Of a stretch of DNA of 64,000 nucleotides, positions 46,077-57,523 are shown piece by piece. Position 1 is the stretch's first letter. Each line of letters begins with the position of its first letter. Origin of the DNA: Pseudolabrys sp. (lineage in GTDB: Bacteria > Pseudomonadota > Alphaproteobacteria > Rhizobiales > Xanthobacteraceae); NCBI GenBank assembly GCA_035499835.1, contig DATJYA010000358.1, forward strand, positions 170-64,169, written 5' to 3'. A model generated the notes under the pieces. That model searched no databases. It was not told the origin of the DNA and saw nothing but the letters and a program-made list of their open reading frames with translations. The position numbers were made by a program, and so were the translations under genes.

Positions 46077-46473
46077 GGCGGACTACCTCCGACCCAGCCT
46101 TTTCGCTTTTGCGACCGCCACTGCGGCGATAAGCGCGTCGGTGCTGATTCTCTTTTGCGAGCAGGCGTTCCTGCAGTACAAAATTTCGATGGCTGATAAC
46201 GGTTTCCCAGGCGAGAATTCCCGGATTCATATAAACCGTAGCACCTTCCAATCTGCGGCGGGCAATTTCAATTTTCTGCTTTTGACAATACCTGAGCCGC
46301 ACTTCGCGCGAGTTTTGATGACGACCAAGCAGTACCGAGCGCGGAAGGCGATAGAACCGCAGCGTATCAGGAATGTCGCCAGCCTGATGAAGTTCAACCA
46401 TTGCCGCGCTCATAGCAACGTTCCAGCGCGCCGGCAGCAGACCCGTATCCACTACCGTGAGCGAACCGGTCAT
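46069..46473 (-). pseudogene. Truncated/degenerate lipoate-protein ligase (LplA N-terminal half)
   Basis: DTG...NVAMS, TLRFY, VLLGRHQN and RRRLEGATVYMNPG (degenerate RRxxGGGxVYxD). Similarity is lost after about 95 aa and there is no catalytic KxxG. Confidence 0.65.
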
Positions 46474-46868
46474 TGCACCTCGACCTCGTCGACCCTGAGT
46501 CGTCGGCCCCATTTGTCAAAGAAATGGCCTTCATTGAGTGCGAGCGGGTCACCGTCAATGCGTGTTTCCAGCTCGCGGAGCTGCAGGCGCGCGCTCGGAT
46601 TGTCGAGTGGGCCGTCACGGGGGCCGGTCACCGGGAAGAACGACGCGCCGTCCCATTCCTGCCCGGAGCCGGCAAAAAGCACGGTGATTTCCGACCAATC
46701 GGTTTCATCACCGATGACGTTGAAATAGCTCGAACATAGCGGGCTGACAGTTGCCTCAGCGATTCTGACCAGCACCACAAGCGCGGTAAAGGCGCCGGTC
46801 CGAGCGAACTCTTCCGCCAGCCAGCGGTCAAAATCGGTCGGTTGCTTTGCGGAGTCAGAAATCGACAA
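46470..46868 (-). CDS. Hypothetical protein
   Basis: TTG start overlaps the upstream gene end and its stop overlaps the next ATG (ATGA). Protein-like acidic/aromatic sequence ending EGHFFDKWGRRL. Confidence 0.7.
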   Translation of the reverse strand: MSISDSAKQPTDFDRWLAEEFARTGAFTALVVLVRIAEATVSPLCSSYFNVIGDETDWSEITVLFAGSGQEWDGASFFPVTGPRDGPLDNPSARLQLRELETRIDGDPLALNEGHFFDKWGRRLRVDEVEVQ

Positions 46869-47316
46869 CGGGCGTCTCCGGCATGTAGTTTTCGAACAGG
46901 ATCCAGAACAGGTTCGGGTGGCTTTCGGCATACCAACGCTCGAATTCACCGAGCGCCGCCACCACGTCGGGCGGCGGCCCGTCCCCGCTTTGCGGTGGCG
47001 CCAGGCTTGCGAACATGGCCTGGGCAACGGGTGTGAAGCGAGACAACACAGCAGCGCGTGCGTCGCTGTCACTCGACCAGCCGAGCTTGGTTCGCAGCAC
47101 GGCGGTCGCAGCCGCGACTGCGATTTCCTCACTTTCGGCGCCGGCGATTGCGTCGGCAATGGACCGCATCAAATTGAACCGGCGGAACGCGAAGGCGCGC
47201 TCCCGCTCGAGCGCCTTGACGCGCGCCGCCACTTCGCGGCGGAATTCATCTTCCGCTATGTTCGCGCGTTCCGTCGCCTGCCGCAACACGTCGAGGAACG
47301 ATGGCCCGGGCGTCAT
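46855..47316 (-). CDS. Hypothetical helical protein
   Basis: GGAG RBS directly after the selB stop. 153 aa with coiled-coil N-terminus and FERWY...FWILFE...ETPVVDF C-terminus. Confidence 0.75.
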   Translation of the reverse strand: MTPGPSFLDVLRQATERANIAEDEFRREVAARVKALERERAFAFRRFNLMRSIADAIAGAESEEIAVAAATAVLRTKLGWSSDSDARAAVLSRFTPVAQAMFASLAPPQSGDGPPPDVVAALGEFERWYAESHPNLFWILFENYMPETPVVDF

Positions 47317-47328
47317 GTCGTTGCTCCG

Positions 47329-49380
47329 CTATCGTGGCGGAAGAGAGAGGGAGTCGAACCCACCAAGGACCGGCTCGCGGCCCCTCCCGGATTTGAAGTC
47401 CGGACGCCCCACCGGGGACGATTCTCTTCCTGAAGTGTCGACGCCGGCCTCGGCCGGCCAGCGAAACAGATCGAGGCGGTGCTTGTTGACGCGGCGCAGA
47501 TCGCCGCGGCGCAAGGTCACGCCATGCCGATCGAAAAATTCAAGAATCTGGATGGCGACCTTGCGGCCGTTGTCGAGGCGGTCGCGGAACTGCGCGGCAG
47601 CGAATTGTCCGTCGGCGGACGTGGCACTGAGGTCGACGATGATTTCCACCATCTCCGTCACGGTCCGGCGCAGAAAGAAATGATCGTGCGCCACCTCGTC
47701 CGTCCTTCCGATGCGCCCAAGCAGCTTGAGCAGGCGCCGCACGTCGGCTTCGTGCAACGCCAACATCCCGGCGATGTCGCGCACGCGCGGCGGGCGGAAG
47801 CGTTCGGCGCCGCCGATCAACGGCGAGACGCGCGCCCAGATTTTCTCATCGTCCGAAGTGAGCCGCACTTCGTGGCCAGCCAGCCGCACCCAGGCGCCGT
47901 CCAAAGCGATTTCCTTCTCGCGCACAAGTCCTTGTAGAATCGCCATAAATTCCGGCATTGGCAGTCGGGGCTGGAGCTGCAGCCGCAACCTTTCAAGGCC
48001 GATGCCCGGCAGATCGGGACTTGCCGCGTGAAAATCGTGCAGCGCCGCCAACAGGTCGCGCTTGAAACTCAGCCATACCGGCGTCGACAAGGCGACGATA
48101 CGCTCATCCACAGTCGCGGTGACGAGGCCGAGCCGTTCGGCAATCGCCTGCGCCTGCTCATCGGCGATGGCGCGGTCGCGGGCGAAAACCGACAGATCGA
48201 CATAGCGCGGCGCAATGTCCAGCAACGCCGCCAGCACAGCGGTCGGGTCGCCGACCGCACAAGCGCGCAACTGGGCCAGCCGCTCGGGCGAACGGCGCTT
48301 GCGCAATGGCGCGCGCAGATCGAGGAATTGGCCGCCGCCGATGGTACGCTGCGCCGTGGTGTCGCGCAGCACGAAGCGGTCGCCGGACGCCGCCGCGATC
48401 GGCCGGTCGAGCACGAGCTGGACCAGCGCCTCGCCGCCCGGCAAAATTGGCTCGTCGCCGAGGAGCACGATGCGGGCGCTGACGTCGGTTGCGGCATGAT
48501 GCAGACGCGCCGGCATCCATTGTGTCACCGGCTTCTGCTCGCTCGCCAGCAGCCGGAAGGTCGCGTCGATCCGGTCGGTGGGAGCATGCAGGTCCGGATC
48601 GAGTACCACCTGCCCGCGCGCGATGGCGTCCTTGGTGATGCCGTCGCCAGCAAGATTAAGCGCGCAGCGCTGGCCGGCGACGCCGCGGTCGCTCGACCTG
48701 TTCTGTGCATGAATGGAGCGCACACGCGCTACGAGGCCCGAAGGGCTGATCATGACGCGATCGCCCGTTGTCATCGCGCCGGAGAGCACCGTGCCCGTCA
48801 CCACCGTGCCGGTGCCGGGCAACGTAAACGACCGGTCGACGGCAAGGCGAAAGCGCTCGGCGGCGGTGCGGGCCTTGATCGGGCGCGCGGCGTCGAACAG
48901 CCGATCGCGCAAGTCGTCGACGCCGTCGCCGGTGACGGTCGAGACCGGAACGATATCGGCCCTTGCGAGGCTGGTGCCCTTGAGCAGTTGGGCGATGTCG
49001 GCGGCGACCTTATCGCGCCACGGCGGCGCCGCGAGGTCCGCCTTAGTGAGCGCGACGATGCCGCGCTCGATGCCGAGCAGATCGATGATGGCGAGATGTT
49101 CGCGTGTCTGCGGCATGACGCCGTCGTCGGCGGCAATGACCAGCAATGCGAAGTCAATGCCGGTAGCGCCGGCCAGCATGTTGTGGATGAATTTATCATG
49201 GCCCGGCACGTCGACAAAGCCGAGCACGGAGCCGTCCGGTGCCGGCAGGTAGGCAAAACCGAGATCGATGGATATGCCGCGCGCCTTTTCCTCCTTCAGC
49301 CGATCGGTATCGACGCCGGTGAGTGCGCGCACCAGCGACGTCTTGCCGTGATCGATATGGCCGGCGGTGCCGACGATCAT
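47329..49380 (-). CDS. selB: Selenocysteine-specific elongation factor
   Basis: MIVGTAGHIDHGKT, GISIDLGF, DVPGHDKF and the WH4 motif FRDRLDNGRKVAIQILEFFD. First in-frame stop is TAG at 47329. Confidence 0.96.
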   Translation of the reverse strand: MIVGTAGHIDHGKTSLVRALTGVDTDRLKEEKARGISIDLGFAYLPAPDGSVLGFVDVPGHDKFIHNMLAGATGIDFALLVIAADDGVMPQTREHLAIIDLLGIERGIVALTKADLAAPPWRDKVAADIAQLLKGTSLARADIVPVSTVTGDGVDDLRDRLFDAARPIKARTAAERFRLAVDRSFTLPGTGTVVTGTVLSGAMTTGDRVMISPSGLVARVRSIHAQNRSSDRGVAGQRCALNLAGDGITKDAIARGQVVLDPDLHAPTDRIDATFRLLASEQKPVTQWMPARLHHAATDVSARIVLLGDEPILPGGEALVQLVLDRPIAAASGDRFVLRDTTAQRTIGGGQFLDLRAPLRKRRSPERLAQLRACAVGDPTAVLAALLDIAPRYVDLSVFARDRAIADEQAQAIAERLGLVTATVDERIVALSTPVWLSFKRDLLAALHDFHAASPDLPGIGLERLRLQLQPRLPMPEFMAILQGLVREKEIALDGAWVRLAGHEVRLTSDDEKIWARVSPLIGGAERFRPPRVRDIAGMLALHEADVRRLLKLLGRIGRTDEVAHDHFFLRRTVTEMVEIIVDLSATSADGQFAAAQFRDRLDNGRKVAIQILEFFDRHGVTLRRGDLRRVNKHRLDLFRWPAEAGVDTSGRESSPVGRPDFKSGRGREPVLGGFDSLSLPPR
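47335..47430 (-). tRNA. selC: tRNA-Sec (UCA), 96 nt
   Basis: 8-bp acceptor stem GGAAGAGA/TCTCTTCC, 6-bp D stem with 4-nt loop, CTTCAAA anticodon loop, long variable arm, TTCGACT T loop and G73-CCA. Confidence 0.96.
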
Positions 49381-50168
49381 GGGGCGGGCTCCGGCAAGGG
49401 CGCGGCGGCGCGCGCCTCGGCCTGGGCAATGTCGGCAGGCGACAATGCGCAGTGCACCGCAAGGAAAAACTGGCCGGCTAGCGCCGAGCCGCCGGCGCGA
49501 GCCCGCAACAACCAGACAAAGGCCTCGACCGGATCGCGGCGAACGCCGGCGCCAAGGTGATAGGCCGCGCCGAGCATTGCCTGGCCATCGGCGTCGCCGC
49601 GTTCGGCGCCGCGCCGCCACCACATCACCGCCTGAGCGGCGTCGCGCCCGACGCCGAGCGCGTTGTGGTACAGCATGCCGAGGCGCGTCATCGAGGCGGC
49701 GACGCCCTGCTCCGCCGCCGCTTCGGCCCAACGGCGGGCCTCGAGGTAATCCGGCTCGGCGACTTCGCCTTCCAACAGCATCCAGCTCAGCATGTCCTGC
49801 GCCGGCCCGTCGCCCTGTTCGGCGGCCGCGCGGTAGTGCTCCACGGCGCGCGCGTAGTTCTGCTCGATGCCGTCGCCCTTGAAGTACAGCGCGGCCAGAT
49901 TGCGTTGCCCAACCGCATCGCCTGCTTCGGCCGCCAGCCTAAGCCATTTGGCGGCAAGGGCAGCATCGCGCTCTACACCCAGTCCCTCGGAGAAACAGGC
50001 GCCGACATTGTTCTGCGCCCGCGCCACACCGGATTGCGCCAACGGCCCCCAGATTTCGAGCGCGCGCGCGTAGTCGCCAAGGCTCGATGCCTCATAGGCC
50101 GCCGCCATTTGTCTGGCTATGCTCGCGCCGCCAGCGCGCGGCTTCGTCACCACATCAGGCCGGCGCAT
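49377..50168 (-). CDS. Sel1-like repeat (SLR) protein
   Basis: About five 36-aa repeats (AQNNVGACFSEGLGV, GQRNLAALYFKGDGI, LGMLYHNALGV, LGAAYHLGAGV). Overlaps both selA and selB. Start uncertain. Confidence 0.85.
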   Translation of the reverse strand: MRRPDVVTKPRAGGASIARQMAAAYEASSLGDYARALEIWGPLAQSGVARAQNNVGACFSEGLGVERDAALAAKWLRLAAEAGDAVGQRNLAALYFKGDGIEQNYARAVEHYRAAAEQGDGPAQDMLSWMLLEGEVAEPDYLEARRWAEAAAEQGVAASMTRLGMLYHNALGVGRDAAQAVMWWRRGAERGDADGQAMLGAAYHLGAGVRRDPVEAFVWLLRARAGGSALAGQFFLAVHCALSPADIAQAEARAAAPLPEPAP

Positions 50169-51570
50169 CGGCGGCCCCCGCGAGGTTTAAATTGGCGAGG
50201 TTGGCGACGAAGCCCTTTTCGTCCTCAAGGCACCGCAAGTCGAGGACCAACGCTTTGTCCTCGATGCGACCGACCACGGGAACCGGCAATTGGCGCAGCG
50301 CCGACGACAGCATCGCCAGCGCCCGCCCGCCGCCGCGCGCAGCATGCGGCCTGATGGCGAGGCCGGCGCTCGGTACGGCCTCAAGCGGTAGCGCGCCCGA
50401 GCCGATCTGGCTGACGCAGGATCCGACGGCGGCCTCGTAGCCATCGCCAATCTTGTTCGCGACGAACGGCAACAGCCGCGCGGCCAGCGCCTCGATCTCC
50501 TTTTTCGGCCGTGCGAGCAGGCGCATAGTCGGCAGCTGCTCGGCGAGCCTGTCCGGATTGCGATAGAGCCGCAGCGTCGCCTCCAACGCCGCGAGCCTGA
50601 TCTTGTCGATGCGCATCGCCCGCTTCATCGGATTGCTCTTGATGCGCGCGATCAGCTCCTTGCGGCCGACGATGAACCCCGCCTGCGGTCCGCCAAGTAG
50701 CTTGTCGCCGGAAAAGGTGACGAGATCGGCACCGTCGGCAACCGCTTCCTTCACCGTCAGCTCATGCACGAGCCCGAAACGGGCGAGATCGATCAGCGTG
50801 CCGGAGCCGAGATCGTTGACCAGCGGTACTTTTTTCGCATGCGCCAGCACGGCAAGCTCGCGCGCAGCGACCTCCTTGGTGAAGCCTTCGATGCGGTAAT
50901 TCGAGGTATGCACCTTGAGGACGAGACCGGTCTTCGGCCCGATGGCGCCGACGTAGTCCTTCTTGTGCGTGCGGTTGGTTGTGCCGACCTCGACGAGTTT
51001 TGCGCCGGCGCGGCTCATGATGTCCGGCATGCGGAAGGTGCCGCCGATCTCGATCAGTTCGCCGCGCGAGACGATGGCTTCACGCCCTTTGGCCAGAGTG
51101 TTGAGCACGAGCAGCACCGCGGCAGCGTTGTTGTTGACGACGGTGGCATCCTCGGCGCCGGTTAATTCGCACAGCAGCTCGCGCACCAGATCGTCGCGGT
51201 CGCCGCGGTGCCCGCCGCAGAGATCGAATTCGAGCGCGACGGCGTTGCGCATCGCCACGCTGGCGGCTTCGATCGCTGTCTCGGCCAATAATGCACGGCC
51301 GAGATTGGTGTGCAGGACGGTACCGGTCAGGTTGAACACCGGTCGCAGACTAGGCTGCGCATCCGCCTCAAGTTTTGCGAGCGCTGTCTGTTCGATGTCC
51401 GCGACGCTCCCCGAGATCCTTTCCCGCCGCGCCGCGGCCAGAGCATGGCGAACGGCGGCAACAACCGCGCTGCGGCCAAAGCGGTCGAGCGCCGCGGTCA
51501 TGCCTTCGCCGCGAACAACCTCATCGACCGAGGGTAACTCACGTAGCTGCGCGCTTGCCGTCTTTTCCAT
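50155..51570 (-). CDS. selA: L-seryl-tRNA(Sec) selenium transferase
   Basis: NLTGTVLHTNLGRA, VNNNAAA, EVGTTNRTH and FSGDKLLGGPQAG. Confidence 0.96.
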   Translation of the reverse strand: MEKTASAQLRELPSVDEVVRGEGMTAALDRFGRSAVVAAVRHALAAARRERISGSVADIEQTALAKLEADAQPSLRPVFNLTGTVLHTNLGRALLAETAIEAASVAMRNAVALEFDLCGGHRGDRDDLVRELLCELTGAEDATVVNNNAAAVLLVLNTLAKGREAIVSRGELIEIGGTFRMPDIMSRAGAKLVEVGTTNRTHKKDYVGAIGPKTGLVLKVHTSNYRIEGFTKEVAARELAVLAHAKKVPLVNDLGSGTLIDLARFGLVHELTVKEAVADGADLVTFSGDKLLGGPQAGFIVGRKELIARIKSNPMKRAMRIDKIRLAALEATLRLYRNPDRLAEQLPTMRLLARPKKEIEALAARLLPFVANKIGDGYEAAVGSCVSQIGSGALPLEAVPSAGLAIRPHAARGGGRALAMLSSALRQLPVPVVGRIEDKALVLDLRCLEDEKGFVANLANLNLAGAADAPA

Positions 51571-51578
51571 CGCCCGCC

Positions 51579-52496
51579 TCAATAGCCGAGCAGGAACGGA
51601 TTGACGGCACCGCGCTGGTAGCCTCCCTCACGGAGCAATAGATCGAGTCCCAAAGTCGCGATGTCATCGGCAACCGGATCGAGCGCAGGGTCTTTGTGCT
51701 GATGCATAATTTTCAGGTACCCGTGGCAAGTCTCGCAGGTTTCCGCCTTGACGGTCGCGGGTCCGCCGTCGAGCTCCTGATAGGCAATGCCCTTGGTCGC
51801 GTTGCACAATACGCATTTGATGCGCACGGCATGCCACTGCGTTGCGCACAGCGAACAGGAGCAGAAGCGTGTGCCGTGGGCGCCCTTCCAGCCGACGATC
51901 GCCGAAGCAACTGGTGCCCCGCCGCAGGACGGGCAAACGCCGTCGCCGATCGGAACCAGCGCCTCGACATCAAGCAGCGCGGCTGCCCGGGCGAAATGAA
52001 CTTGCAGTGCTGCCGCGACATAGACGTGATCGGCCATCATCTCGACCGGGATCGACTCGGCCAATACGTTGCGCAGCATGGCGTCGCGGCCGCTCGCATC
52101 GGCACCGCGCACGCGGTCGAGAGCCGCACGCGCTGTCTCCGGCATGTCGATTTCGGCCGACAGCGCGAACAGGCGATCGAATGTCGCGTCGAGCGCGGCG
52201 TCGGCGGTGAAATGGGTGCGATCGAGCGGCGGCATAGCATACTCGCGCGCCCGTGCGCGCGCCTCGGCCGCGGGCAGGTCCGGCGCCGGGAGTCCTTGCA
52301 GCAGGCGATGCAGGCAATCGCTCAATTGTCCGAGGAACTTGAGGTAAGCGCCAAGGCGATGGCCTTCGGCCACGGTCCTGAAACGCCGCGCGCGCTCGGC
52401 AAAAAGACTGGCGGGATCTGGCAGCCGCGCAAAAGGCGGAGCGGCAACATCGCCGATCACTGTCGGATCGGGCCGGAGAGAACCGGCTTTACTCAT
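51579..52496 (-). CDS. fdhE: Formate dehydrogenase accessory protein
   Basis: CPSCG, CSLCATQW..RIKCVLC, ETCETC and DPVADDIATLGLD. Confidence 0.93.
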   Translation of the reverse strand: MSKAGSLRPDPTVIGDVAAPPFARLPDPASLFAERARRFRTVAEGHRLGAYLKFLGQLSDCLHRLLQGLPAPDLPAAEARARAREYAMPPLDRTHFTADAALDATFDRLFALSAEIDMPETARAALDRVRGADASGRDAMLRNVLAESIPVEMMADHVYVAAALQVHFARAAALLDVEALVPIGDGVCPSCGGAPVASAIVGWKGAHGTRFCSCSLCATQWHAVRIKCVLCNATKGIAYQELDGGPATVKAETCETCHGYLKIMHQHKDPALDPVADDIATLGLDLLLREGGYQRGAVNPFLLGY

Positions 52497-54224: not shown

Positions 54225-57200
54225 CTACGCCACCGGGCCGGACGCGATAGGCTCAATATCGACCAGGAACGCCTTGTATTCAGGCGTTTCGATATTGGCG
54301 TCGCCGACATAGGGCGTGAGCGAATTCGGGCCGAAGCCCTTCCTCGCCGCACCCATGAAGCCCCAATGCAGGGGTATGCCGACGATGTGGACCGTCTTGC
54401 CGTCGCAGGTCAGCGGCTGGATGCGCTTGGTGACCACGGCTTTCGCCTTCACCGATCCGCGCTTGGACCAGACCCGGACCCAGCCGCCGCCCTTGATGTT
54501 TTTCTCTTTGGCGAGCTGCTCCGATATCTCGACAAAGAATTCGGGCTGCAGCGAGGCATTGATCTCGGCGTGCTTGGTCCAGAAGTGGAAGTGCTCGGTG
54601 AGCCGGTAGGACGTCGCCGCATAGGGGAAATCCTTGGCATCGCCGAACTGCTCCATATCGCCTTTGAAGACGCGGGCGGCGGGATTGCCGCGGACCTTCG
54701 GCGCCAGAACATTGACCACCGGAGATTCGAACGGCTCGTAGTGCGCCGGGAACGGCCCGTCGCGCATCATCGTCCGCGTGAACAGCCGCGCGGTGCCTTC
54801 CGGGTTCATGATGAAAGGCCCGACCACGTCTGGCTTGGCGTTCGGGGCAATGTCCGGCACGTCGTAGCCGGTCCACTTGGCCCCATCCCACCACAGCAGT
54901 TTGCGAGTCTCATCCCACGGGTTGCCGTTGATGTCGGCCGACGCACGATTGTAGAGGATGCGCCGGTTGACCGGCCACGACCACGACCATTTCGGGAAGG
55001 CGCCGGTGTCGTCGGGATCAGTGTTGTCGCGGCGGGCCATCTGATTGCCCGCCTCGGTATAGGAGCCGGAATAGATCCAGCAGCCGCAGGCCGTCGAGCC
55101 GTCGTCGCGCAACACGGCGAAGCTGACGACCTGCTTGCCCTTTTGCAGGATGGTCTTGGTCGCGTCATTCGGATCGGGGACGTCCGCGACGACGTAGCCG
55201 CTGACTTCCTTGGCGATTTCGTCCGGCTGCGGGTAGCCCGGATCCTTGTATGGCCATACGAGCTTGGTGAGCGGATCGGAAAACGCTCCGCCCTCCTTCT
55301 CATACAGCGCTTTAAGCCGCTGCCAGATCTGCGCCATGATCCAGGCATCGTGCTTGGCCTCGCCCGGCGGCGTGCCGCCGGCCCAATGCCATTGCAGCCA
55401 GCGGCCGGAATTGGTGAGCGAGCCCTCGTCCTCGGCAAAGCAGGTGGTCGGAAGCTCGATCACCTCGGTCTGGATGCTCGAGGAGTTCACATCGTTGTAC
55501 TCGCCGTGATTCTCCCAGAAGCGCGCCGTCTCGGTCTGCAGCGGATCCATGACGACGAGGAACTTGAGCCTGGAGAGCGCCGCGGTGAGCTTCTTGCGGT
55601 TCGGGAACGACAGCAGGGGATTGAAGCCCTGGCAGAAGTACCCGTTCATCTTACCTTCGTGCATCAACTCGAATGCGCGAAGCACGTCGTAAGCCGGGAC
55701 ATCCAGCTTGGGCAGCCAGTCGTAAGCCCAGTTGTTTTCCGGCGTGGCCGCGTCGCCCCACATCGACTTCTGGAAGCTGACGAAGAACTTCCTGTAGTTC
55801 TGCCAGTAGCTCATCTGGTTCGGCCGCAACGGCTTGAAACCGCGCGTCGACATGTAGACGTCGAAGGTCGGCTCCTTTTCGTTGGGGATCGTCAGATAGC
55901 CGGGGATCAGGTTCGACATCAAGCCGAGATCGGTCAGCCCCTGGATGTTGGAGTGACCGCGCAAGGCGTTCATGCCACCGCCGCGCACGCCGATATTGCC
56001 GAGAATAAGCTGCAACATCGCCATCGCGCGGATGTTCTGCGACCCCTTCGAATGCTGGGTCCAGCCCAGCGCGTACATTGAGGTCATCGTCTTGGTCGGC
56101 GTCGAACACTCGCCGATCATCTCGCAGACCTTGGTGAATTTGGCCTTGGGCGTGCCGCAAATGCGCTCGACCATTTCGGGCGTGTAAACCGCAACGTGCT
56201 TCTTCAGCAGGCTCCAGACGCTGCGCGGGTTGTCCATGTCTGATACCACATAGCCGTCGGCACCGAGCTGATAGTCCCAGGTCGACTTGTTGTAGTCGCG
56301 CTTGATCTCGTCGTAGCCGGTGAACAGGCCGTCCTGATAATCGAAGCCGTCCTTGACCACGTAAGGCGCGTTTGTGAACGCTTTGACGTAATCCCACTGC
56401 ACCTTGTTGTTGTCGATGCAGTACTTGATCACGCCGAGCAGGAACGCGATGTCCGTACCCTGGCGGATCGGCGCGTACATGTCGGACACTGAGGCCGAGC
56501 GCGTGTAACGCGGATCAACAACAATGAGCTTGGCGCCGCGGTTGGCTTTCGCCTCCGTGACCCATTTGAATCCGCACGGGTGCGCCTCAGCGGCGTTGCC
56601 ACCCATGATCACGACAAGGTCGGTATTCTTGATATCCGTCCAAGAGTTCGTCATTGCACCGCGACCGAATGTTGGGGCCAGACTGGCCACCGTCGGTCCG
56701 TGTCAAACTCTTGCTTGGTTATCGAATGCCAACATCCCAGCGCCGCGCACGACCTTGTACGTGACGAACGCTGTTTCGTTTGTGGTTGCCGAGGCGGCGA
56801 GGAAACCCGTGGTCAGCCACCGGTTCACCGTGATGCCGTCGTTGTTCTTGGCGATGAAGTTCTTGTCGCGGTCGTCCTTCATCAGCCGCGCGACGCGGTC
56901 GAGCGCCACGTCCCACGACACGCGCTCGAACTTGTCCGAACCGGCCTTGCGGATCTGCGGATACTTGGTGCGCGTCTCCGAGTGCACCATGTCGAGCAGC
57001 GCCGCACCCTTAGGGCATAACGTGCCGCGATTGGTCGGATGATCGGTATCGCCTTCGATGTGGATAATGTCGGCCTTCTCACCCTTCGCAAGGTTGCCCT
57101 TGGAATACATGATGATGCCGCAGGCGACCGAGCAATATGTGCAGGTGTTGCGGGTTTCGGTGGTGCCGAGAAGTTTGAAGGGTCGAATCTCCGCTGCATA

Positions 57201-57296
57201 AGCGGCTTCGATATCTCCAAAGCCAAGCGCTCCGATTGTTGTACCGGCAAGACCCGCGCCGGCGCCTTTCATAAATTGGCGCCGCGAGAGTTCCAT
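54225..57296 (-). CDS. fdnG: Selenocysteine-containing formate dehydrogenase-N/O alpha subunit (1023 aa, Sec198)
   Basis: ORFs 56703-57380 and 54225-56690 are in frame across TGA 56703-56705, giving [26 protein letters not shown]. Tat leader [15 protein letters not shown] and [10 protein letters not shown]. Confidence 0.96.
56663..56702 (-). promoter_or_regulatory. Bacterial SECIS element
   Basis: 11 nt after UGA: GG-U(bulge)-GGCCA-GUC-UGGCC-CC, with a lower stem GACCGA/UCGGUC. Same geometry as enterobacterial fdnG/fdhF SECIS. Confidence 0.88.
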
Positions 57297-57352
57297 GTTC
57301 ACGGTGGGCCTCCTTGAGACCATTCGCCCCCAACGGGGGACATTTTCACCGA

Positions 57353-57376
57353 GGGCATGTCTCCCCAGACATGCCC
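57353..57376 (-). other. 10-bp hairpin in the fdnG leader
   Basis: GGGCATGTCT-CCCC-AGACATGCCC. Confidence 0.55.
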
Positions 57377-57523
57377 CCATGAGCGGAATCCAAGTTCGAA
57401 TAACAAAACGCTATTTTTTAAGCTCGGCGAAGTCAAACTGTTCCAGAATTTTCACGAGAAATTGCGAAACGGATTTCTGGATTTATTGCACTGCTCATCG
57501 GCAGCGCGAGCGCATGAACTACC

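Follow-up and report, generated by a model that had tools for sequence, protein, structure and literature searches.

The window analyzed here, a 64-kb stretch of Pseudolabrys sp. DNA, contains a complete gene for the selenocysteine tRNA (tRNA-Sec), selC, which lies on the minus strand and entirely within the reading frame of selB, the gene for the elongation factor SelB. A complete tRNA gene within a bacterial coding frame is unusual. Both this layout and the model in which each transcript is either translated or processed were already published in 2021 (Mukai, 2021; Int J Mol Sci 22:4605, PMC8124441), and the window is an ordinary further example. The reading that we favor, and hold to be reasonably probable, is that the pair is a regular member of the published selC-in-selB arrangement of Alphaproteobacteria, in which the two genes would be co-transcribed and the common RNA translated or processed, with a coupling that is at most weakly selected.

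A complete tRNA-Sec gene within the selB frame

The selC gene occupies positions 47335-47430 of the minus strand, where ARAGORN detects the sole tRNA of the window, tRNA-SeC(tca), and where the Rfam family RF01852 is matched at 75.7 bits (E 1.5e-14; gathering score 47). As read from the sequence, the acceptor stem, GGAAGAGA/TCTCTTCC, pairs perfectly over 8 bp; behind it come G73 and a CCA that is part of the gene, which with this CCA measures 96 nt, i.e., 32 codons. The score above the gathering threshold, the 8-bp acceptor stem, the UCA anticodon and a long variable arm are together those of a bacterial tRNA-Sec. Compensatory changes are found in 16 of its 32 predicted pairs among 27 distinct relatives, a covariation pattern which indicates that selection acts on tRNA-Sec at the RNA level. 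In the source genome, a metagenome bin of 503 contigs that is 65% complete, this is the one tRNA-Sec above the Rfam cut-off, and a search for a second selC copy elsewhere in the bin returned only sub-threshold Rfam matches.

The surrounding gene, selB (47329-49380, minus strand), is part of a longer open reading frame (ORF) at 47329-49731 whose translation is SelB; as read from the sequence, the gene itself begins with the ATG at 49380-49378, giving a SelB of 683 aa followed by TAG. The frame encodes domains I-III and four winged helices (WH) and continues with a spacer of 11 codons, the 32 codons of the tRNA and a single Arg codon up to the stop. GTP_EFTU, GTP_EFTU_D2, Beta-barrel_SelB, SelB-wing_2 and SelB-wing_3 are matched above their cutoffs, and SelB_WH_2nd_bact, at 23.2 bits, is under its 27-bit cutoff; EF-Tu-like GTPase domains combined with C-terminal winged-helix domains that bind the selenocysteine insertion sequence (SECIS) are the makeup of a SelB elongation factor. 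SelB-wing_3 (WH4), the last Pfam domain, ends about 53 residues ahead of the stop, with no stop codon in between. The tRNA encodes residues 651-682, the CGA at 47334-47332 adds Arg as residue 683, and the TAG stands at 47331-47329, its T being 4 nt past the terminal A of the CCA; CGA and TAG, which together span 47329-47334 on the minus strand directly behind the CCA, place the stop where a whole subtype of relatives has it (see below). In the window, tRNA-Sec is thus nested in the full sense, lying wholly between the start and stop codons of selB and on the same strand.

The extension has the form G-RESS...SLSLP-P, from a first Gly (GGA) to a last tRNA-encoded Pro (CCA). The C-terminus of the protein reads ...LDLFRWPAEAGVDTS/GRESSPVGRPDFKSGRGREPVLGGFDSLSLPP/R before the stop, and the predicted tryptic peptide of the tail is, in the version of the window, EPVLGGFDSLSLPPR. 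One database entry (P0002) is also 683 aa long and is 100% identical to a 48-residue query from the SelB tail. The sequence-only reading that was followed up here had described this layout, and it stands in every coordinate: the tRNA-Sec gene wholly inside the selB frame and on its strand, the lack of a stop after WH4 and through all 96 nt of selC, the tail exactly as it had been quoted, and the TAG 4 nt past the CCA.

The 33-residue tail is not predicted to fold. Its predicted local distance difference test (pLDDT) values are 26-30, without secondary structure, in a structure model based on a 26-sequence alignment, in which WH4 is also poorly modelled. Tail residues vary along with compensatory changes in the tRNA stems, as in GRELRPVAHS of the relative L044, and the peptide is not conserved for its own sake; its sequence is dictated by the tRNA. 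A role of the tail sequence at the protein level was also considered and is unlikely, as the tail follows the covariation of the tRNA, two loci read it in a different frame, and loci with a stop ahead of selC lack it.

Nesting in related genomes

That similar overlaps may exist in relatives had been suggested from the sequence alone, with the caveat that the relatives might instead all stop upstream of selC. A survey of selB/selC junctions bears out the former. It covered 29 related Xanthobacteraceae/Pseudolabrys-like loci from independent assemblies, among them genus and order relatives and 23 further loci from a scan of named genomes (titled Xanthobacteraceae, Pseudolabrys, Hyphomicrobiales or Methylocapsa aurea); in 26 of the 29, the selB frame continues through selC. 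The nearest loci, with SelB identities of 70-83%, are titled Xanthobacteraceae, Pseudolabrys or Hyphomicrobiales, in line with an alphaproteobacterial host, and two genus or order relatives (SelB identity 75% and 73%) are nested in the same frame as the window. When the last 48 residues of SelB were compared with 5.8 billion proteins, 1013 matches of SelB length were obtained at E<=1e-3; among the best 120 of these 1013, the tRNA-encoded tail is present in all 120, and 71 have the same 'PPR stop' ending as the window.

From base composition alone, a codon is a stop with a probability of 0.0225 and the chance of a stop-free run of 44 codons is ~0.37, so that a single case of read-through would be unremarkable. 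The finding of 26 such cases among 29 independently assembled loci, in contrast, exceeds chance. In nearly all relatives, nested or not, tRNA-Sec can be read without a stop in each of its three sense frames, and the loss of one stop codon therefore suffices for nesting.

The spacer and the position of the selB stop

WH4, which ends in ..LDLF, is separated from G1 of the tRNA by a spacer of 33 nt, or 11 codons (47431-47463, minus strand), that is highly variable in sequence among relatives. Its length is 30, 33, 36, 39, 42, 45, 54 or 84 nt in loci where the frame is kept and 41, 43 or 58 nt where it is not; at least seven length changes are multiples of three, against three that are not (binomial P ~0.02, by a crude count that takes distinct lengths as events and ignores phylogeny).

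Two subtypes can be distinguished by where selB stops. In the 'PPR stop' subtype, the stop lies 4 nt past the CCA, as TAG, TAA or TGA, and the sequence behind it diverges. The position of the stop in the window is shared by L037, L038, L039, L041, L042, L051, L053 and L054, and in one locus of this subtype that has lost it, the immediately next codon is TAG. In the other subtype, a TGA located 19, 22, 28 or 46 nt past the tRNA overlaps the ATG of the following gene, ORF1, as ATGA (L008, L009, L044-L050, L055, L058). The selB stop of the window does not overlap the next start, since its TAG is 12 nt ahead of the ATG at 47316; overlap of the selB stop with the ORF1 start is a frequent, not a defining, feature of the nested arrangement. 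In both subtypes, termination occurs close to the ORF1 start. Taken together, the frame-keeping spacer indels and the held stop position suggest that ribosomes do translate the tRNA and that there is selection on the place where they stop.

A few loci depart from these patterns. In L056 and L059, both from Microflora Danica long-read bins, selC is read in the two other frames, giving tails ..RKRLVPGGASGLQIREG.. and ..EENRPRWGVRTSNPGG.. that end at the ORF1 start; frameshifts are present inside selB in the long-read bins L054 and L059, and for this reason the other-frame tails of L056 and L059 may be homopolymer errors. In L040 (CAWHSO010000018.1), the T-arm of tRNA-Sec differs by one base, probably through an assembly indel, and the selB frame is thereby shifted and runs ~290 nt further into ORF1. 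In L068 (G190:C148:5046-6754), the selB TGA abuts G1 of tRNA-Sec without any spacer, an intermediate between a stop before selC and nesting.

Expression of the nested pair and alternative explanations

In the reading that we favor, selC would have no promoter of its own and would be transcribed within a single fdh-selA-Sel1-selB-selC-ORF1-ORF2 message. Ribosomes arriving before excision of the tRNA would translate selC, giving SelB with a floppy 33-residue tail, and would terminate 12 nt before ORF1, beside its GGAG. Between ribosomes, the tRNA would fold, and RNase P, cutting at the 5' end (47430), together with 3' trimming, would free tRNA-Sec. The upstream fragment would then be a selB mRNA without a stop codon, to be cleared by transfer-messenger RNA (tmRNA), and the downstream fragment would, in the subtype of the window, keep a short leader with the GGAG; from the 'PPR stop' and the GGAG of ORF1 itself, it follows that ORF1 would retain a short Shine-Dalgarno leader after tRNA excision. 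As excision removes the selB stop, one transcript could not keep serving as both mRNA and tRNA source. Co-transcription would fit the overlap of neighboring genes (ATGA at 49377-49380) and the negative results of the promoter scan and the synonymous-site test given below. An alpha-type tmRNA (288.8 bits) and an RNase P RNA (291.3 bits) are encoded in the same genome. This translate-or-process interpretation, which the sequence-only reading had also put forward, is physically plausible, and is already the model of Mukai (2021). Because relatives repeatedly move the stop ahead of selC, the coupling is best seen as a physical consequence of the layout that would be at most weakly selected.

Several points weigh against this reading. 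Co-transcription, read-through translation, cutting of the message by RNase P and tagging by tmRNA are all four steps that we infer. The structure model of the tail is shallow, at 26 sequences, and poor over WH4 too. The count of spacer indels was made without regard to phylogeny, and two of the out-of-frame spacers come from long-read bins, one of which (L059) has frameshifts in selB, as has a third bin (L054). The scan for promoters relied on an E. coli-type consensus and the synonymous-site test spanned 144 nt only, so a promoter may lie farther upstream in selB. Three relatives of the window stop 24, 63 and 25 nt ahead of selC. Of 301 genomes sampled evenly from the order, 20 have a similar SelB C-terminus (16 junctions were fetched and classified along with the window and two relatives). 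The stop is 3-63 nt ahead of selC in nine of these 20 selB genomes; five are nested, with the stop after selC, one has a TGA within the tRNA at nucleotides 46-48, four have no selC within about 700 nt, and one junction was not fetched. Nesting is thus labile and often lost, which argues against a strong function, and since relatives often stop just before selC, it is dispensable.

It is possible, though we lean against it, that nesting is a neutral by-product: an ancestral stop upstream of an adjacent selC would have been lost, the frame would have run to the next stop, and a roleless tail would have been tolerated. This would fit the three open sense frames of tRNA-Sec in nested and non-nested loci alike, in a GC-rich lineage with the low stop probability per codon given above (0.0225), as well as the different frames in which L056 and L059 read the tail, the tail residues that track compensatory stem changes, the predicted disorder of the tail and the frequent switching between states. 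It accounts less well for spacer indels that are nearly all multiples of three, and for a stop that is held at one position through changes among TAG, TAA and TGA or that overlaps the ORF1 start. Frame-keeping indels and a held stop point to selection on the stopping place, probably for coupling to ORF1.

Rather unlikely, in our view, is the strong form of the model shared by the sequence-only reading and Mukai, in which nesting would be selected as a homeostat that fixes the SelB:tRNA-Sec ratio. Each processing event would yield tRNA-Sec and halt SelB synthesis, so that excess SelB could not sequester Sec-tRNA-Sec. The layout is indeed kept in 26 of the 29 close loci with frame-preserving spacer changes, the tmRNA and the RNase P RNA are present, a single selC was found, and the model is a published one. 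However, a per-transcript, one-to-one trade-off does not alone set a ratio, because tRNAs far outlive mRNAs. Reversion to a stop before selC has also occurred repeatedly within the genus and the order, and the trait has been called 'not essential' (Mukai, 2021). Given these frequent reversions, adaptive control of the ratio by nesting is probably weak.

A private selC promoter in the 3' part of selB is distinctly improbable. A separate short transcript would then provide the tRNA, the full-length message would rarely be processed, and translation and tRNA production would be largely independent. E. coli selC, which is expressed on its own, offers a precedent, and the consensus used in our scan is not tuned to alphaproteobacterial promoters. 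With this E. coli-type consensus, no sigma-70-like promoter was found in 46400-52000; terminator-like matches in the same interval are at the level of shuffles, with none at selC. Moreover, synonymous sites are no better conserved in the 48 selB codons (144 nt) ahead of the spacer than in the G domain (third-position entropy of 0.78 versus 0.74 bits), the spacer is highly variable, and even if selC had such a promoter, a folded tRNA within read-through messages would remain a substrate of RNase P.

Finally, an assembly or sequencing error that conceals the true selB stop, a risk that had been raised from the sequence alone, can safely be set aside: although the source genome is a fragmented bin and selB carries frameshifts in some related long-read bins, the same open frame and 'PPR stop' ending are shared by numerous independent assemblies and by 71 of the best 120 database matches, and nesting is also found in genomes of isolates (e.g., Pseudolabrys sp. 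Root1462, Methylocapsa aurea).

Relation to known arrangements

Transcripts that combine tRNAs with the mRNA of an elongation factor are known from E. coli, where the products of thrU-tyrU-glyT-thrT-tufB are carried on one RNA that RNase P and RNase E cleave apart. In contrast to the window, the tRNAs there are outside the coding region and their processing removes no stop codon. A tRNA in direct orientation within a coding region, for which processing and translation are mutually exclusive, is found in the mitochondrion of Armadillidium vulgare, where tRNA-Lys lies inside cox1 (Doublet, 2015, cited in Mukai, 2021); that case concerns a reduced tRNA in a compact organelle genome, whereas the window has a full-size tRNA in a large bacterial genome.

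The arrangement of the window was described by Mukai (2021), who reported selC nested in selB of diverse Rhizobiales and some Rhodobacterales, Rhodospirillales and Caulobacterales, within a cluster composed of fdoGHI, selA, a Sel1-like gene, selB/C, ORF1 and ORF2, the latter two being found only in Alphaproteobacteria. In that study, the extension is 96 nt long, starting with Gly and ending with Pro, some lineages have regained an upstream selB stop, and the nesting trait is concluded to be 'not essential'. According to the model proposed there, tRNA processing leaves the selB mRNA without a stop codon and the downstream mRNA without a leader, which makes the expression of SelB and that of tRNA-Sec alternatives. 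Reviews from 2022 and 2026 cite this work; in the literature, these citing reviews were all that was found, and no experimental follow-up of the model.

The window likewise has a complete, sense-strand, 96-nt tRNA-Sec with its CCA inside the selB frame, and the Gly(GGA)...Pro(CCA) extension, the cluster, the Rhizobiales/Hyphomicrobiales host and the proposed non-stop-mRNA mechanism are all the same. It differs in that its selB stop, 4 nt past the CCA and 12 nt before an ATG preceded by GGAG, does not overlap the next start. This 'PPR stop' subtype prevails among the nearest relatives of the window. In the published model, ORF1 is leaderless after excision of the tRNA; here it would keep its short leader.

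Partial overlap of selB and selC has also been reported, in Dyella/Luteibacter and in Nitrospirae, with the stop at nucleotides 46-48 of the tRNA (Mukai, 2021). The two genes are on the same strand and overlap there as in the window, where nesting is complete. A locus from the family of the window itself, L064 (G231:C1:718938-720694), has its selB TGA inside tRNA-Sec, at nucleotides 46-48, with the tail ..GRESSLVGRSDFKSG before the stop; the stop position of the gammaproteobacterial Dyella/Luteibacter thus recurs in an alphaproteobacterium.

The surrounding gene cluster

The genes around selB and selC, all on the minus strand, correspond to the cluster outlined above: a formate dehydrogenase with selenocysteine, selA, a Sel1-like gene, selB/selC and two downstream ORFs without family. 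The first of these is a molybdopterin oxidoreductase, a formate-dehydrogenase-like alpha subunit with a Tat export signal (54225-57380; Pfam Molybdopterin, Molybdop_Fe4S4, Molydop_binding and TAT_signal). Its frame contains exactly one TGA and needs this codon to be decoded as selenocysteine in order to stay open, and the protein is likely the selenoprotein client of the selB/selC pair. Further along the strand come selA, encoding selenocysteine synthase (50155-51582; Pfam SelA, E 2.9e-162, and Se-cys_synth_N), and, between selA and selB, a gene for a Sel1-repeat protein (49377-50168; Pfam Sel1, five repeats, E 7.5e-41). The TGA of the latter shares three bases with the selB ATG, as ATGA at 49377-49380, an overlap that suggests translational coupling along the operon.

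Downstream of selB, the ORF list gives a candidate ORF1 of 153 aa (46855-47316), which matches no Pfam family and starts with the ATG 12 nt past the selB stop; a GGAG is located 7 nt ahead of this ATG. Relatives conserve the N-terminus of ORF1 (M-T/I-P-x-x-S-F-L-D) behind selC, with homologous sequence in L008, L009, L011 and L012. A candidate ORF2 of 132 aa (46470-46868) is also without a match in the Pfam search. Matched by their position in the cluster, the two are probably ORF1 and ORF2 of Mukai (2021).

Implications

As the idea was published in 2021, the window adds one soil Xanthobacteraceae example to it and is not a discovery; at most, it is one more member, with the variant in which selB stops right after the CCA. 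The comparison with relatives adds frame-preserving changes of the spacer, a conserved stop position with interchangeable codons, the lack of any sign of an internal promoter and the frequent loss of nesting. For the organism, the layout means that each transcript would serve either as a template for SelB or as a precursor of tRNA-Sec, which could link the amounts of the two. A further conjecture, which we consider unlikely, is that the 'PPR stop' subtype is itself selected, with ribosomes that terminate on the 3' trailer timing the 3' maturation of tRNA-Sec and handing over to ORF1. If this were true, the layout would be a tunable switch among SelB synthesis, tRNA-Sec release and expression of ORF1 and ORF2, and not a tolerated accident.

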